Shown here: positions 55,095 through 64,000 of the stretch, piece by piece
How positions within the stretch are numbered: the stretch's first letter is position 1
Layout of the letters: every line of letters begins with the position of its first letter
Source: Pristiophorus japonicus
Taxonomy: Eukaryota
Assembly (NCBI RefSeq): GCF_044704955.1
Contig: NC_091984.1
Location: 146,878,001 to 146,942,000, forward strand
Direction: 5' to 3'
Length of the DNA: 64,000 bases
The notes under the pieces: model-generated
What the model saw: only the letters and a program-made list of their open reading frames with translations
Databases searched by the model: none
Told to the model about the DNA's origin: nothing
Position numbers and translations under genes: made by a program

Positions 55095-57160
55095 AACATA
55101 AGGAATAGGAGTAGGCCATATGGCCCCTCAAGCCTGCTCCGCCATTTAATATGATCATGGCTGATCCGATCATGGACTCAATTCCACTTCCCTACCCGCT
55201 CCCCATAACCCCTTATCGGTTAAGAAACTGTCTATTTCTGTCTTAAATTTATTCAATGACCCAGTTTCACAGCTCTCTGAGGCAGCGAAGTCCACAGATT
55301 TATAACCCTCTGAGAGAAGAAATTCCACCTCATCTCAGTTTGAAATGGGTGGCCCCTTATTCTAAGATTATGCCCTCTAGTTCTAGTCTCCCCTATCATT
55401 AAAAACATCCTCTCTGTATCCACCATGTTGTTGTCGGCATTAGGCACCTGCTGAATATATCAAAACACTAGGCATTAGGCACCTGCTGAATATATCAAAA
55501 CTCATATAAGTTTAAAGTGGCCACACATAAAATGGCTGTCCAGGCATGATGGGAAATCAGGTAGTCAAGCTGTGAACTATTGACTGAGGCTGACCGAGCA
55601 ATAACCCTGTGAGGCCCACTGCCAGGAATGCCTTGGATACAAGATAACTATAACAAACCATTATAACTCCACACAGCAGAGCCCCGAGAAATAGAGATAA
55701 GGGGGGCCTACATCACATAACGAGGGCATGAATCAGCCCGAGCTGACAAGAACCGAATATGTAACTCTAATAAGGAGGCTACCCAAAGACAGCACCCAAG
55801 ATAAAGGGGCCTGGACAATGTTACAAGATACATGAGTAATTCCTAGCAACACACCCCTTAGCAACGCATCTCTTGGCAACACATGAGCCACTTTACGTTT
55901 AGAGACTAACTCTATCTATTGGTCTAATTGAATCTATAATCAGTATGATTGGATAGTATCCAGCTGAAATGGGCTGATGTAACTGTAGTAAAGAACTATT
56001 GTAAAACATATAAATATCGATGAGTTTCTTTGTTCGGCGGAAAGAAGCCTGGATACAGTCCTGCGACTTCCTCCCTACTGGCGTTAATAAAGGCCGCACT
56101 GGCGTTGGAACCGACTCTGAGTGTTGAGTGATTCTTCTGATAAACTCTAACACTAACAGTGTCAAGCCCCCTCATAATCTTATATGTTTCAATAAGATCA
56201 CCTCTCATTCTTCTGATTTCCAATGAGTCGAGGCCCAACCTACTCTACCGTTACTCATAAGTCAACCCCCTTATCCCTGGAATCAACCAAGTGAACCTTC
56301 TCTGAACTGCCTCCAAAGCAAGTATATCCTTTCTTAAATATGGAAACCAAAACTTTATGCAGTGTTCCAGTTGTGGCCTCACCAATACCCTGTATAACTG
56401 TAGCAAACACTTCCCTACTTTTATACTCCATCCCCTTTGCAATAAAGGCCAAGATTCCATTGGCCTTCCTGATCACTTGCTATACCTGCACACAAACCTT
56501 TTGTGTTTCATGTACCAGGAACCCCAGGTCACGCTGTACTGTAGCACTTTGTTATTTTTCTCCATATAAATAATAACTTGCTCTTCGATTCTTTGCTGGA
56601 TTTTAAAAGCTTTCCAATCTTCTGCCCTCCCACTAGTTTTGGCCACATTGTATGCCCTTGTTTTTAATTGGATACCATCCTTTATTTCTTTAGTTAGCCA
56701 TGGATGGCTATCTTTTCTTTTACACCCTTTGCTCCTCACTGGAAGATATTATTCTTGAGAATTATTAAATATCTCCTTAAATATACGTCACTGTTCATCA
56801 ACCGTCCTAAATTTTAATCTATTTTCCCAGTCCACTTTAGCCAACTCTGCCCTCATACCTTTGTAGTCTCCTTTATTTAAGCTTAGTACGCTGGTTTGAG
56901 ATTCAACTTTCTCACCCTCCATCTGAATTTGCAATTCAACCATGTTATCATCACTCATTCCAAGGGGATCGTTTACTGGGAGATTGTTTATTAATCCTGT
57001 CTCATTACACTGGACCAGATCTAAGATAGCCTGTCCCCTGGTTGGTTCTGTTACATACTGCTCAAGGAACCCATCCCTTATGTCGTCGATGAACTCTTCT
57101 TCAACGCTACCCTGACCAATTTGATTTGTCGCATCAATATGGAGGTTAAAATCACCCATT
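55095..57160 (-). mobile_element. CR1 fragments hosting a solo LTR; 56590-57250 is paralogous to 1300-1960
   Basis: MGDFNLHID...QAILDLV; the same CR1-to-unique junction is seen near 1870-1960. Confidence 0.8.
55429..56158 (+). mobile_element. Solo LTR of the tRNA-Ser-primed family
   Basis: TGTTG...TAACA ends; flanks ATGT/GTGT; TATAAA near 56008; AATAAA at 56086-56091; homologous to the LTRs at 58129 and 63326. Confidence 0.9.
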
Positions 57161-57241: not shown

Positions 57242-58128
57242 CAGCACCCAAGATAAAGGGGCCTGGACAATGTTACAAGATACATGAGTAATTCCTAGCA
57301 ACACACCCCTTAGCAACGCATCTCTTGGCAACACATGAGCCACTTTACGTTTAGAGACTAACTCTATCTATTGGTCTAATTGAATCTATAATCAGTATGA
57401 TTGGATAGTATCCAGCTGAAATGGGCTGATGTAACTGTAGTAAAGAACTATTGTAAAACATATAAATATCGATGAGTTTCTTTGTTCGGCGGAAAGAAGC
57501 CTGGATACAGTCCTGCGACTTCCTCCCTACTGGCGTTAATAAAGGCCGCACTGGCGTTGGAACCGACTCTGAGTGTTGAGTGATTCTTCTGATAAACTCT
57601 AACACTAACAGTGGCGTAGTCGGCAGTAGTCGCTGGACGCCCTTGGAAAAACCCGGGTGAGTATAAAAAAATGATTTTTAATTCTCAAGGGCACGGAAGG
57701 TGGATGCTGTTTGATCGACACGAGGAGACGGTCTAATATCGCAAACACCTAGCCTGAGCCTGAATTAGGAGGACTTTTGTCCCACGTGACGGCCAGGAAC
57801 CAAGTAGGCGTAGGGAACACACTTAGACCGTGGGATCGTGATACTGAAAGACATCTTCCGGACCCAGCAGAGTAATTTAAAATACACCCCGGGGTAGAGC
57901 CAAGCGGTGTACAGTGGCTAACGGAATCCAAACCTGTGAACAGGGTCGGACCAACGGGCCGAGCGGTGGTCGGTAGTCGTTAATGATACGTAGAGCGCTG
58001 CGGGAATTGCTTAAACGTGTTTTAAGTATTGTATAAGTTTGTGTAACAGCAGAACTTCTGACCTGACAGCAGCCCAGAGATGGTCGACAACAAGTTGTGC
58101 GAGATAAAAGGCAAACCTCTGAGAGTAG
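57242..58128 (+). mobile_element. 5'-truncated LTR (57242-57610), tRNA-Ser PBS (57612-57626) and leader of a second provirus, interrupted at 58128
   Basis: LTR end followed by TGGCGTAGTCGGCAG; the leader is homologous to the reverse complement of 62797-63324. Confidence 0.9.
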
Positions 58129-58801
58129 TGTTAGCGTGAATGTTTTCTCAGAAGAATCACTCAACACTCAGAGTCAGTTCCAACTCCAATGCGGCCTTTA
58201 TTAACGCTCAGCGGGGAGGAAGTCTCAGGACTGTATCCAGGCTTCTCTCCACTGAACAAAGGTTTTCATGGATCTTTATATGTTTTGCAACAGTTTACTT
58301 CAGTTACATACAACAGTTTACTGCAGTTACATGAGACCAATAGTGTTAGTTTCTAAACGTAAAGTGGTTCATGTGTTGCCAAGAGATGTGTTGCTAAGGG
58401 GTGTGTTGCTAGGGATGACTCATGTGTCTTGTAACATGGCCTGGGCCTCTCTTATCTTACTGTCCTTGGAAGCTGGCATTGGGTAGCCTCCTTATTAGAG
58501 TTACATATTCGGTTCTTGTCAGCTCGGGCTGATTCATGCCCTCGTTATGTGATGTAGGTCCCCCTTATCTCTATTTCTCGGGGCTCTGCTGTGTGGAGTT
58601 ACAATGGTTTGTTATAGTTATCTTGTATCCAAGGCATTCCTGGCAGTGGGCCTCACAGGGTTATTGCTCGGTCAGCCTCAGTCAATAGTTCACAGCTTGA
58701 CTACCTGATTTCCCATCATGCCTGGGCAGCCATTTTATGTGTGGCCACTTTAAACTTATATGAGTTTAGATATATTCAGCAGGTGCCTAATGCCTACAAC
58801 A

Positions 58802-58814
58802 ATTCCCTCCTTTC
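58802..58814 (-). other. Polypurine tract
   Basis: GAAAGGAGGGAAT immediately before the 3' LTR on the element strand. Confidence 0.85.
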
Positions 58815-58938
58815 GGTAAAGGGACTAGTCCTAGTCCTATTTAACCGACCGCCCTACCTTTATTAGATTTTGTGCACGGCCCGGTACTCCCTGCCTCAAC
58901 GTGCTGGCCAGTCACGCGGTTTCAGGAGTCCCGGTTGC

Positions 58939-60909
58939 TTAAATCAAATTGACAAAGGCCAAATCCTCCTGCCCCCTTATTAGACAGGCTTGTTTAGTAT
59001 CCGGGGAATGGTCATTGGTCCCTCTTCGTTGTGCGTGGTGCCTGCATGCCTGGCAGGCCATTATGCCCCATGTTATTGCTAAGATCAATTGTATCCCGAC
59101 CAGCATGTGTGAAATTATTCAAATCCAAGGATGGATGTTCACATTTATTCCCCAGTCCCAGACCTTTCTCCACCAACTCTGACTTTGTAAGTCTACATCG
59201 ATATCTTCTTCCAGTTTACTTTGATTTTAGTTTGCAGTTGGTGGTAGAGCTTTACGGATTGACCCACTCTGAGCCTCAACTCTCGTAATAACCTGGGTGA
59301 TATGCGCTTGCCCAATCGTGACAGGTCGTAGTGGCGTAAAGCAAAAGTTTGGCTGTGGTATAGGGCACTGCAGGTCATTATGAACGCTCTGTGGTAGAGA
59401 CGCAGTATCTTCCCTTCCCTCCGTAGCCTGCCCTCGCGAAGTGCCTGTGTGCGGGCACTATTTCTAGTACACATCCATCGGTTCGGTTAAACCCGCACTC
59501 GTCTAGCTCACCTCGGCCTACCGGGTGAGGGCATACTGTGATTTCCCCCATTTGCTTGCAATCTGTTAGGGAAATCCCGGAAATATGTTGTTTCGACGAA
59601 CGGCGGAAGTGGTGGTCAGGTAGTAACGTATGGAGACATTTTCCCGTATTACTCCGATATTCTCTAGTTGGTATAGGGGGAACGGCCCTGAGTCCGGCGT
59701 GGCTATAGGGATCATCAGGACTATCCCTATCCCAGTATTCCTACCCATCTGGCAATCTGGAATTGCTGGGTATACTCGGGTCAGTCCCTTCAGAGTACAA
59801 TTATCCAGTGTACCCCTCTGGTTAGCCAACTGAGCCAGATGTGAACTGCCTATCCAATCGGGTACTTCCCCGCGTTGGATCTGGTCGAGATTGTGGCGGA
59901 TCTGTCCTACCATCCACAGACCATAAGCGTGACAGAGTTGCCCCTATCTTTGCTTTCCTGTATCTTCTTTTTCTCTATCAATGAGGTGATTGATGGTTTT
60001 GGCGTGAGCTTCCAGGACTGAGATGCCATCCAACTGGATTTCTGCACCCTCCTTTCCTAGGTTGGCTTGGTCTTCCTGGTTTTGCTCCACCCTCTCATTT
60101 AACCCCTTCATCACACCTCTAAGCTGTTCCACCCTCTCATTTAACCCTTGTATGTCTATTTCCATCTTTATCCTGGGGGCTGACCCCTGTCCTCGGAATC
60201 TACTGGCACCCATTGCATCGGTAGCCTGCTGCATTACAACTTTACTTAATACATTGTACATCTTCCTTGACTGTTCTGTACAGTATTCTGGCATCTGGAT
60301 GCCTGAAATATTGATCAGGACAGGCACAATTTCATGTTTAACATTGTCATACAATAATTCCCCTTCGTTGTATATTACAATCCCATTCTCTGGTCCCTTA
60401 GTAGTTATGGACAAGGCAGTTCCTCGGGCAATGTAGTGGTTCTTATGGGGCGCGGTGTCGGAGTGGGTGAGAAGCATACATACAATGATATTGCAGCCGC
60501 CCCCACCTCCTCGTAGTACCCACACAGCCCCACTCCCTTTTTGCGGATGACTGATTGCCGGGATTGTCCCGGAGATGCGTAAATTATGCCGAAAGTACAT
60601 TCATCAGGCTCTTCGACATCCCTCCGTTTAATGCAGCTGCTCCTTATACCCGTGGAGCACTGTACACATACTCTTATTCTTATTAGGATTCTTATTAGGA
60701 TTCACTTGTAACCATGCATTAAAATAAGTCCTGTCCTTGCTCCAGTCCTTGGCTGCTGAGATGCACATTCCATCCGTTAAATTAAACAAGACTCCATAGT
60801 TCATGTAGTTGTTTATTTCCTGAGTGCACTGCAATCTGTCGGTGTCGTCCAGGGTATGTGCCTGTCGCAGGGCTATCCATATTACGAGGAGTGCCGTTCG
60901 TATTCCCAT
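58939..60909 (-). pseudogene. env: Degenerate env: class I fusion glycoprotein of paramyxo/pneumovirus F type
   Basis: Manual reconstruction across frameshifts and stops gives a signal peptide MGIRTALLVIWIALRQAHT, a heptad region, GIVLMIPI...LYQLENIGVI, a Cys-rich block (ISLTDCKQMGEITVCPHP...ECGFNRTDGC...YCVST...QCPIPQPNFCFTP), a second heptad, SWWRKVWDW and TM IISHMLVGIQLILAITWGIMAC. Confidence 0.8.
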
Positions 60910-61016
60910 TCTGGTAGGTATTATCTGTAATTTTAAACAGACGGCCTGGTCGTCACCAGGGGTTAGGTTTTGCTCTACGAGTATCCCTGTCACCCTGCGA
61001 AATCAGAAGCACAAGG

Positions 61017-61130
61017 TTATAATGGAACCATTTCGAGTTGAATCTGTGGGGCATGCGCCCGTGCCTTTACCCACTTAAATATTACCCAAACTCCTATTGT
61101 GACCAAGGCCAAAGCTATTCCTCCGAACAT
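61017..61130 (-). CDS. Putative 37-aa single-pass membrane microprotein upstream of env
   Basis: ATG...TAA encoding MFGGIALALVTIGVWVIFKWVKARAHAPQIQLEMVPL; too short for the supplied ORF track. Confidence 0.4.
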   Translation of the reverse strand: MFGGIALALVTIGVWVIFKWVKARAHAPQIQLEMVPL

Positions 61131-63306
61131 CGTTGTCTGCTTTACCGTTAGGTTGGGTTTGTGGACTACACCTACCCACCGTGGGGTACATTAGCTCTAT
61201 TGCCATAGGTGATGGTGCTATGGCTGCGCACTGCACTATCCGTCTAGTCCCGTTATCTCTTCCAGCCTGTTTATCCTCGCTTTTAACTCTTCAATTTGTT
61301 TTGTTTGAGTATCTATTACAGAAGCTAGTTCTGTTTTTATTTTTGTTTCCTCTGTTAGGTGAGTCTTTTTTTTAATTAAGAAATCCAAACTATTAATGTT
61401 CAGTATCTTAAACGGCTGTCAATGGAAAGGGTTATCTCCTTTCCAGGTTTGTAAGAAGACCTGATGTCATTACGTGACTTCATGTAATCATCTGAAAAAA
61501 AGTCTTTGTGCCTTCAAAGCTGGCTTAGAAATTAGGAATCCGTTAAACAGCATCAATCATTAGAGTAAACTCCAATGTTTTCTTAACTTCTAATTCAAGT
61601 ACTTGCCAAAGAAATCTTTTTTTTAATTGATTTAAAACGAGACCACACATACAATAGCAATTTTGTTTTCTGAAATTCAATTTTTTTTTAAATTTCTCTC
61701 TTTCTCCTCGTTATCTTCAAAACCCTCCTGCTTGTTTAGACTGTTCAGGACTTTTCTTAATAAACACTGTCCATTTTAGAAATCTTTTCAAACTGCATTG
61801 AAACTTTCTCATAATTTAATATCATTATCAATGTTGAGTGTTTTTTTACCTCTTCCAAATTTTTTTTCTCTTTTCCTAATTAAACCAATATCTTTTTTTT
61901 TTCACAGCAAACATCAAGTAGTATTTAGTAAGTTATGCCTTTTTTCCATCACAAACACATTTTTTTTTCCAGCACTTATTTAGTCCGTTACATCTTTTTT
62001 TTTCTTTCTTCAAATTAGGTTTTGTATTTTACACGGAGGGCCCGTAACTCCATAAAGTTGTTAATTTAAAATTTAAATCCTTTTTTTGTTTTGAGCTAGA
62101 AGCTTTCTTAAAAGGCATTCTTTATCTCATTCCGAGACTAAATTTATGTCTTTCAATCCAATGTAATCAATCATTGCACGTTTTCTTTCGACAAGTAAAT
62201 TCTTTTTTTTTTTAACCACCGTGACCATGTATTTATTATGTTTTACTCAACAAACCTATCCTTTGTACATTTCCGAGCTCCGTAACTTATCATCCGAATA
62301 AATCCACACCTGCGTTTCTAATTTAAAATGTCTTAAAACTTTCCACATACAGAACAACACTACAAAGGGTTAACTAAAATAAACAGACACTTGCATTCCT
62401 CTTCCAACCAGGCTTTCAGAAACATGACAACATAAAAATTCATTCCGCAGTTACAAAATCACACAGGGACTCTCACTCAACGACCAGACATTTACAACAG
62501 TCTCTCTTCTTTCCTTTAAAATTTTGGATCCATTGAAACTTTCAAGGAATTCATAGTTTTATCTAAATAATTCCTCACATAACTTTTGTAGTGGACAACC
62601 GGTATTGTTTTTTTTTTCCGTTCCTTCACCCACCATTCCCGTTAGGTTGCTGACAGGTCCTACCCTGCTCTAATCATTTTCTCGATTAGTTTCACTTGCT
62701 TTTCCGCCAGATGGCGGGTAATGGACCCTTCTGATCCCCACTCGAGTTTACTTGTTTTCATGGTCATTCCTGGGTAGGACTAGTACCGTTAGGAATCTAC
62801 TCTCAGAGGTCCGCTTCCTTCCCAGCGCAACTTGGAGTAGACCGTCTCCTAGCTACTGTCAGGTCACAAGTTCTGCTGTTACACAAACTTATACAATTCT
62901 TAAAACGCGTTTAACCAATTTCCCGCAGTGCTCTACGTATCCTTAACGACTACCTACCACCGCTCGGCCCATTGGTCCGACCCTGTTCACAGGTTTGGAT
63001 TCCGTTAGCCACTGTACACCGCTTGGTTCTACCCTGGGGTGTATTTCAAATTACTCTGCTGGGTCCGGAAGATGTCTTTCAGTATCACGATCCCACGGTC
63101 TAAGTGTGTTCCCGACGCCTACTTGGTTCCTGGCCGTCACTTGGGACAAAAGTCCTCTTAATTCAGACGCAGGCTAGGCGTTTGAGATATTAGATCATCT
63201 CCTCGTGTCGATCAACCAGCTTCCACCTTCTGCACCCTTTATAATTAAAAATCGTTTTTTTATACTCACCCGGGCTTTTTTCAAGGGCGCCCAGCGACTC
63301 CGGGGA

Positions 63307-63324
63307 ATCCTGCCGACTATGCCA
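63307..63324 (-). other. Primer binding site complementary to the tRNA-Ser 3' end
   Basis: TGGCATAGTCGGCAGGAT, 1 nt after the 5' LTR; 17 of 18 match to the vertebrate tRNA-Ser 3' end (AUCCUGCCGACUACGCCA). Confidence 0.88.
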
Positions 63325-64000
63325 TTGTTAGCGTGAATGTTTTCTCAGAAGAATCACTCAACACTCAGAGTCGGTTCCAACGCCAATGCAGCCTTTATTA
63401 AAGCTCAGCGGGGAGGAAGTCTCAGGACTGTATCCAGGCTTCTCTCCACTGAACAAAGGTTTTCATGGATCTTTATATGTTTTACAACAGTTTACTACAG
63501 TTACATACAACAGTTTACTACAGTTACATTAGACCAATAGCATTAGTCTCTAAACGTAAAGTGGCTCATGTGTTGCCAAGAGATGTGTTGCTAAGGGGTG
63601 TGTTGCTAGGGATGACTCATGTGTCTTGTAACATGGCCTGGGCCTCTCTTATCTTACTGTCCTTGGAAGCTGGCATTGGGTAGCCTCCTTATTAGAGTTA
63701 CATATTCGGTTCTTGTCAGCTCGGGCTGATTCATGCCCTCGTTATGTGATGTAGGCCCCTCTTATCTCTATTTCTCGGGGCTCTGCTGTGTGGAGTTACA
63801 ATGGTTTGTTATAGTTATCTTGTATTCAAGGCAGTCCTGGCAGTGGGCCTCACAGGGTTATTGCTCGGTCTGCCTCAGTCAATAGTTCACAGCTTGACTA
63901 CCTGATTTCCCATCATGCCTGGGCAGCCATTTTATGTGTGGCCACTTTAAACTTATATGAGTTTAGATATATTCAGCAGGTGCATAATGCCTACAACAGT

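Follow-up and report, generated by a model that had tools for sequence, protein, structure and literature searches.

ERVs related to SnRV have been described in a cartilaginous fish, the elephant shark (available part of PMC4422223). According to the portions available of PMC4422223, PMC6001957 and PMC12193657, SnRV, clade Huo and CmiERV lineage I combine RT and RNase H motifs, a gag-pol in one frame with a stop, a zinc knuckle in Gag and aquatic hosts including a cartilaginous fish, and in these features the shark family analyzed in this study is alike. Lokiretroviruses, as presented in the accessible text of PMC7947760, have dual RNase H and an F-type Env with an RxKR site, a fusion peptide, a coiled coil and a TM, to which the Env of the shark family is homologous; as F-like Env had been seen only outside known retroviruses, that paper could not decide among four scenarios for how retroviral Env originated. 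The Env proteins of foamy viruses (PMC11468914) and errantiviruses (bioRxiv 2023.10.26.564294), as far as the available text of each source describes them, have the same F-type class I fusion core, and both differ from the shark family in their pol lineage. In our literature search, no paper was found that describes an Env of the F type for retroviruses of SnRV grade or of sharks, a subject that Calcraft et al. 2024 (Cell) may cover.

The window, a stretch of 64,000 nucleotides of Pristiophorus japonicus NC_091984.1, contains a minus-strand LTR retroelement that is a non-autonomous, dead copy. LTR comparison placed the 5' LTR at 63326..63998 and the 3' LTR at 58129..58801 (673 bp each, minus strand), with 655 of 673 positions identical (97.3%) and ends of the form TG...CA. 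A 4-bp target-site duplication flanks the element, its left copy lying at 58125..58128 and its right copy, with one mismatch, running from 63999 past the window end. The primer-binding site (63307..63324, minus strand) is the complement of the 3'-terminal sequence of the host's tRNA-Ser(AGA) genes, an assignment made by a pattern search of host tRNA genes and confirmed by ARAGORN at 4/4 loci. A polypurine tract (PPT) is located at 58802..58817 on the minus strand. The paired LTRs, tRNA-Ser primer site, PPT and decayed glycoprotein gene of the original prediction were all recovered.

The interior of the element, also on the minus strand, begins with a leader (62780..63306) that has approximately 85% identity to the leader of autonomous relatives and is likely to act as a packaging signal. 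The gag gene is cut to its first 60 or so codons (62609..62779), which are 70% identical to autonomous Gag and contain stops, and pol is absent, the place of gag-pol being taken by an A-rich, C-poor non-coding filler (61162..62608) common to non-autonomous subfamilies, followed by what is left of the 3' end of pol and of the pol-env spacer (60910..61161). The possibility that the filler is a G-to-A hypermutated gag-pol was rejected, as its collapsed-alphabet score was 532 versus 536-592 in 8/8 block shuffles. The env gene (58939..60909) is broken by frameshifts and several stops over all three frames, and it encodes, in order, a signal peptide, a Cys-rich N-terminal beta domain, a cleavage site, heptad A, a beta-rich core, heptad B and a TM; the two peptide blocks originally quoted as reminiscent of paramyxovirus and pneumovirus F are present in it. 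In this copy the furin motif is altered, and an in-frame 54-nt deletion, with its junction at 60157..60162, has removed the fusion-peptide stretch that follows the cleavage site; the junction of a second deletion of approximately 100 nt, present in part of the close kin, lies before heptad B at 59280..59300.

Identical LTR pairs are present in 5 of 15 autonomous loci of the family, with three distinct sets of flanks, which bears out the recent activity that had been proposed, for the family only; the copy in the window is older, an ordinary insertion that is now dead. Absolute dating from its LTR divergence of approximately 0.027 was rejected as unreliable, because two rates given in the available text of PMC4422223 turn the same divergence into about 6 or 60 My.

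A genome-wide search, as the original prediction had proposed, retrieved at least 1,283 LTR-primer-site junctions and full gag-pol-env relatives. Gag and pol were located upstream of env in 16 of the 20 regions with the top env matches, and filler in the other 4/20; ten of the 16 gag-pol regions had an unbroken pol frame of approximately 1180 aa. The autonomous layout, with domains assigned by Pfam, is LTR-gag-TGA-pol(PR-RT-tether-RNase H-IN)-env-LTR, with two CCHC zinc knuckles in Gag, an in-frame TGA between gag and pol in 15/15 autonomous loci, a weak MLVIN_C match at the integrase C-terminus, and target-site duplications mostly of 5 bp and sometimes of 4 bp. The autonomous relatives show the features of Retroviridae, namely the order LTR-PBS-gag-pro-pol-env-PPT-LTR, dual RNase H and an RT inside the retrovirus clade. 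The named relatives, among them a sawshark-labelled protein with 92% identity, agree with the original assignment to a shark, and the same Env family is carried by Chiloscyllium punctatum.

These results indicate, with a probability of roughly 85%, that the window element derives from a high-copy shark ERV with a predicted F-type Env and a pol between SnRV and class I, of which it is a dead, non-autonomous form that kept env alone, and that Gag-Pol from full-length relatives likely copied it in trans. The element retains cis signals (LTRs, tRNA-Ser primer site, leader, PPT and target-site duplication) in the absence of gag-pol. By analogy with retrovirus biology, Pol of the relatives would be made via TGA read-through, and the short RNA would be packaged along with proteins from a helper and, after priming by tRNA-Ser, integrated. 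Among 21 filler-type elements, four have an env that clusters with those of autonomous copies, a pattern that co-packaging followed by recombination would produce. Between subfamilies, Env has diverged under purifying selection (net dN/dS 0.16).

The original prediction of a paramyxovirus-F-like envelope was supported by a fold search and by profile alignment. Foldseek comparison of the model of a natural open Env with PDB gave 246 matches at E<=0.001 (best E 3.2e-11), and all those listed were paramyxovirus or pneumovirus F. The model is a monomer of moderate quality (pLDDT 64.3, pTM 0.47), with TM-scores of 0.30-0.36; against post-fusion Nipah F, VIA gave Z 11.3 and an rmsd of 4.5 over 276 residues, Z values of the Env model being within the range that, per the tool, helical proteins reach by chance. 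In hhalign, the Env profile matched true lokiretrovirus Env at 98.1% (E 8.8e-14, 351 columns) versus 0.2% for a Gag control. Atlas neighbours carried Fusion_gly, Baculo_F and Gypsy, at a recognition score of 1608 that is below the reliable range, and the BFVD structure search also listed Gypsy and baculovirus F relatives. Sequence searches of Pfam and PDB with Env pieces, open Env and the Env profile gave no significant match, to F or otherwise, including none to TLV_coat or related Pfam families of gamma-type Env. True lokiretrovirus Env does match PF00523, weakly (E 1.2e-5 and 2.2e-3), and PF00523 searched against the shark's own genome had a single match below the cut-off, located in the env of a sister family. 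The N-terminal domain folded alone had no PDB match at E<=0.001 (pLDDT 66.7, one of five models). As originally stated for the reconstructed protein, no CX6CC or ISD-like motif was present in 2/2 natural open Env proteins; RxKR, fusion peptide, coiled coil and TM were found in open copies. Together, the modeled fold and the profile alignment support the designation of the Env of the shark family as a predicted paramyxovirus-F-type fusion protein. In intact Env, furin cleavage at RxKR would release the fusion peptide, heptads A and B would zip into a six-helix bundle round a beta core of the F type, and receptor binding may fall to the Cys-rich domain at the N-terminus.

The placement of the polymerase was examined in trees in which foamy virus was a single row, the outgroup one or two partial rows, and WDSV had no named row. 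In the tree with three lokiretroviruses and a gypsy outgroup, the family RT nests inside Retroviridae, lokiretroviruses are sister to all retroviruses (96/93), and the query group (99/96) is sister to class I (94/96), between SnRV and class I; with respect to class I (gamma/epsilon, ERV1), the family RT is sister to, and not inside, the gamma plus epsilon clade. The RT plus RNase H tree gave the same placement, with SnRV outside query and class I (99/99), and the RT-only tree, in which the family is likewise sister to the gamma plus epsilon clade, did not resolve the base of Retroviridae or the relation to SnRV. Grouping with foamy virus was not rejected by the AU test (p=0.18). In lokiretroviruses, RNase H groups with foamy viruses and integrase is close to CGIN1; in the shark family, RNase H matched MLV/XMRV structures best, and IN was best matched, among the matches listed, by foamy integrase.

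A less likely reading, though one of appreciable probability, keeps the same anatomy but assigns the family to the SnRV clade proper (clade Huo; CmiERV lineage I), with no separate stem of class I. The RT and RNase H motifs are near those of SnRV, including the motif LPQGFHNSP of the SnRV row, and SnRV-related ERVs are known in elephant shark. However, the RT identity of 44% to SnRV is equaled by a class-I-side row, the longer alignments place the family one node nearer class I, and the AU test marginally rejected grouping with SnRV (p=0.039). The family also differs from SnRV in its UGA junction, reported for SSSV and ZFERV where UAG is reported for SnRV, its tRNA-Ser primer, its short Env tail, and in that no accessory ORFs were seen. 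The original proposal of an undescribed family stands only in part, since the RT falls largely within described ground; what is new is a subfamily that has env alone and lacks the fusion-peptide stretch, together with a direct test of membership in the lokiretroviruses. WDSV/WEHV and SSSV/ZFERV are similar to the family in the stop read-through junction and, by the weak Pfam match, the MLV-type IN C-terminus; unlike these, the family has an RT outside class I, an Env of approximately 710 aa rather than 1,150-1,300, and mostly 5-bp target duplications. ERV3/ERV4 are characterized, in the available text of PMC4299795, by no Gag zinc finger, no GPY/F motif and a 5-bp TSD, unlike the shark family with its two knuckles, weak MLVIN_C match and occasional 4-bp duplications.

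An improbable alternative for the subfamily is that selection retained the fusion-peptide-less Env because, unable to fuse, it served as a decoy, either occupying the receptor or poisoning the trimers of a helper. The 54-nt deletion is in frame and precise and is present in 19 of the 20 closest env copies with the window copy counted (18/19 kin), and dN/dS within this group is 0.39. However, 18 of the 19 deleted copies have at least one stop relative to the ruler and none has a full-length frame (longest 510 aa). The value of 0.39 is explicable by inherited selection and CpG decay, and the dN/dS estimates, that between subfamilies included, are biased because 40 of 60 copies were chosen by likeness to an intact protein and because CpG decay lowers the ratio. 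Under the preferred reading, an env-only parasite copied in trans, the window subfamily likely moved within germ-line cells or under the Env of a helper, and its spread after the loss of the fusion-peptide stretch suggests that its own Env was not needed.

The lokiretrovirus-type lineage named in the original prediction, extended to cartilaginous fishes, is very improbable. In addition to the homologous Env, the family has dual RNase H, the RxKR site and the gag-pol-env order in common with lokiretroviruses, but the tether and RNase H are common to all retroviruses and are therefore not diagnostic. Lokiretrovirus RT rows have motifs of the CPFGYxNSP and VPLSRWPM type, the exact form of which had 0 matches in the shark genome (a count for that form only, and no proof of absence), and the shark RT has LPQGFHNSP instead; blastp over RT and tether gave 303 bits to SnRV, 270 to MLV and 226 to lokiretroviruses, and grouping with lokiretroviruses was rejected by the AU test (p=0.0002). 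The two CCHC knuckles in Gag and an extra N-terminal Env domain of approximately 140 aa are further differences, and no smc-like ORF was seen. Chiloscyllium punctatum, which holds this Env family, was screened with no positive mark in the accessible portion of PMC7947760. An errantivirus-like Ty3/gypsy retrotransposon can be dismissed: many Ty3/gypsy elements carry an env of the F type, and Gypsy and baculovirus F are among the atlas and BFVD neighbours, but the family has a tether and dual rather than single RNase H, and an RT within Retroviridae and not Metaviridae, whose best solved relative is MLV RT (E 2e-119 vs 1e-59 for Ty3).

Since an F-type Env is joined here to a pol that groups with ordinary retroviruses and not with lokiretroviruses, the results suggest a greater age and a wider spread of this envelope type in retroviruses than the papers found describe, and a lokiretrovirus-homologous Env deep inside Retroviridae narrows the choice towards a common ancestor that already had an F-type Env, or else towards repeated swaps among aquatic retroviruses. 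Predicted walleye Env structures matched the same model (WEHV1 E 3.4e-11, WDSV E 5.5e-8), as did foamy virus Env more weakly (E 3.6e-5), which would favour the former. It is tentatively proposed, at somewhat under even odds, that F-type Env is ancestral to retroviruses, one homologous Env being present in lokiretroviruses, foamy viruses, a shark-skate-frog-coelacanth lineage at the class I stem and walleye epsilonretroviruses, and that gamma-type Env replaced it later; in this reading, a member of the lineage is still spreading in the shark, accompanied by env-only parasites in the thousands, of which one multiplied once its fusion peptide had been lost. The genome offers a dated natural series (young full-length, env-only and fusion-peptide-less elements) bearing on the point at which an ERV no longer depends on its envelope.

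The window element was inserted within the leader of a plus-strand copy of its own family, of which part of an LTR, the primer site (57612-57629) and the leader were identified at 57250..58128, and which continues beyond the window end.

The element at 58129-63998 (minus strand) was confirmed to carry the paired LTRs, tRNA-Ser primer site, purine tract and decayed envelope gene of the original prediction. Its LTRs are 673 bp each, with 655 positions identical. The primer site follows the 5' LTR and is complementary to the 3' end of host tRNA-Ser(AGA) genes (ARAGORN, 4/4 loci), and the purine tract lies just ahead of the 3' LTR. The env gene (58939-60909, minus strand) is disrupted by frameshifts, stops and deletions, and all that is left of gag-pol is a gag remnant of ~60 codons and the final pol bases, separated by ~1.45 kb of A-rich filler without similarity to gag-pol. 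The element is flanked by a 4-bp repeat with one mismatch and interrupts the leader of another family copy, which lies on the opposite strand and extends beyond the window end.

Exact matching of the LTR-end/primer-site junction gave 1,283 matches in the 5.9-Gb genome, a lower bound, and none for a control pattern. When env copies were sought with a 714-aa Mustelus relative, 26 of the 62 copies scored among 27,558 first-look candidates were free of stops, and the regions upstream of 20 such matches contained gag and pol in 16 and filler in four. The autonomous copies encode a 469-aa Gag with two CCHC knuckles and an 1181-aa Pol with Pfam domains for protease, RT, tether, RNase H and integrase, with an in-frame TGA between gag and pol in 15/15 loci. 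Target duplications in these 15 loci were mostly 5 bp and in some 4 bp. The predicted recent activity of the family in the shark was supported, as LTR pairs diverged by 0.75% or less in 11/15 autonomous loci and were identical in five, which represent three distinct flank sets. Four of the 15 share the same flanks and are therefore one insertion duplicated together with its surroundings.

Open Env proteins of the family have a signal peptide, an RxKR site and a single C-terminal TM, and CX6CC and the immunosuppressive motif were absent from both natural open copies inspected, as had been proposed from the decayed gene. Sequence searches against Pfam and PDB matched no known family. For one natural copy with an open Env, the ectodomain was modeled from an alignment of 34 sequences (pLDDT 64.3, pTM 0.47), and all PDB matches listed by Foldseek were paramyxovirus and pneumovirus fusion (F) proteins (best E 3.2e-11). 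Structure comparison (VIA) gave Z up to 11.7, and for post-fusion Nipah F Z 11.3 with an rmsd of 4.5 across 276 residues, within positions 143-537 of the model. Among predicted viral structures (BFVD), walleye epsilonretrovirus Env (E 3.4e-11 and 5.5e-8), baculovirus F, thamnovirus glycoprotein and foamy Env (E 3.6e-5) also matched. The predicted F-type fold is well supported but short of proof, because TM-scores were low (0.30-0.36) and the structure atlas's support was weak by its own score. The ~140-aa N-terminal domain, folded alone, had no structural match in PDB.

The glycoprotein of a fish thamnovirus, a filovirus, was the second-best BFVD match (E 2.5e-12); fish filoviruses are reported to be without the retrovirus-type ectodomain (PMC11521997). 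A different, 413-aa env-like frame adjoins a family member at another locus (L022:8495-9733, minus strand); it has no Pfam match and matched the shark Env profile weakly (hhalign 31.6%, E 5e-4), and probably represents a second, distant F-type lineage. A sister-family element with integrase followed by env (L081) was the sole genome match to PF00523, below cut-off.

Three lokiretrovirus contigs from a metagenome collection, retrieved by a motif from the alignment of PMC7947760, were used as references only. The shark Env profile aligned with lokiretrovirus Env over 351 columns (hhalign 98.1%, E 8.8e-14, 18% identity), and a Gag control gave 0.2%, which is sequence evidence for the F-type envelope independent of the fold search. 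The family had been proposed as a lokiretrovirus-type lineage with an F-like Env; the F-type envelope stands, and the lokiretrovirus claim fails. Membership is contradicted by the RT motifs, which are those of the snakehead retrovirus (SnRV, clade Huo) row and not of the lokiretrovirus rows in the supplement of PMC7947760, by tree position, and by rejection of a clade of the two (AU test, p=0.0002).

The RT tree with lokiretroviruses and gypsy elements, proposed beforehand as a check, placed the family inside Retroviridae. RT alone left the base of Retroviridae without resolution. With RT and tether and a gypsy outgroup, lokiretroviruses were sister to all retroviruses (96/93), as published, and the family group (99/96) adjoined class I, the gamma/epsilon retroviruses (94/96), with SnRV just outside; RT and RNase H gave the same arrangement (99/99). 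The trees took in 20-78 of 120 listed homologs, one of which (P0048) matches the SnRV row of that supplement. Grouping with SnRV was marginally rejected (p=0.039), and grouping with foamy virus, represented by a single row, was not (p=0.18). Named Env relatives came from sharks, one skate, frogs and coelacanth (database profile search, 20 of 47 matches looked up); the alignment excluded one chimeric row and two others that were weak and repeat-like.

F-like Env is already known in lokiretroviruses (PMC7947760) and foamy viruses (PMC11468914) and is widespread in Ty3/gypsy elements (bioRxiv 2023.10.26.564294). SnRV-related ERVs are reported from elephant shark (PMC4422223) and clade Huo from all vertebrate groups (PMC6001957). 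In the literature searched, coverage of which was incomplete, no description of an F-type Env was found for retroviruses of sharks or of SnRV grade; what matters is the position of a family bearing such an Env on the retroviral tree.

Among the 20 closest copies of env, the window element included, 19 have lost the same 54 nt, in frame, from the fusion-peptide stretch; none of 40 copies chosen by likeness to an intact protein has this deletion, and the interrupted opposite-strand copy is likewise free of it. Net dN/dS was 0.16 between the groups and 0.39 inside the deleted group, values biased by the choice of copies resembling an intact protein and by CpG decay, which lowers the ratio; with these biases, the divergence between groups appears to have been under purifying selection. 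Env from the young autonomous group was found in 4/21 filler elements. The best reading is that env-only RNAs would be co-packaged with a helper and copied by its Gag-Pol, that env-only elements may exchange env with the helper, and that one env-only lineage may have continued spreading after its Env lost the ability to fuse; the packaging, read-through, cleavage and fusion steps are extrapolated from what is known of retroviruses and paramyxoviruses.

Tandem or nested family copies are common. On one contig (C1), 6/93 gaps between adjacent LTR-primer-site junctions were <12 kb, all on the same strand (~0.2 expected if uniform), and a head-to-tail pair was found at another locus (L032). Two primer-site variants occur side by side in the family. 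Exact tRNA-Ser(AGA) 3' ends numbered 1,022 genome-wide, many of them in a ~1.95-kb tandem array on a contig (C23) that also carries many filler-type matches. In the window, a full family LTR (55469-56164) is followed by a CR1-type LINE piece and a partial LTR (region to 57610). Over its first 300 nt the partial LTR shows 100% identity with 55790-56089, either by local duplication or as an assembly artefact.
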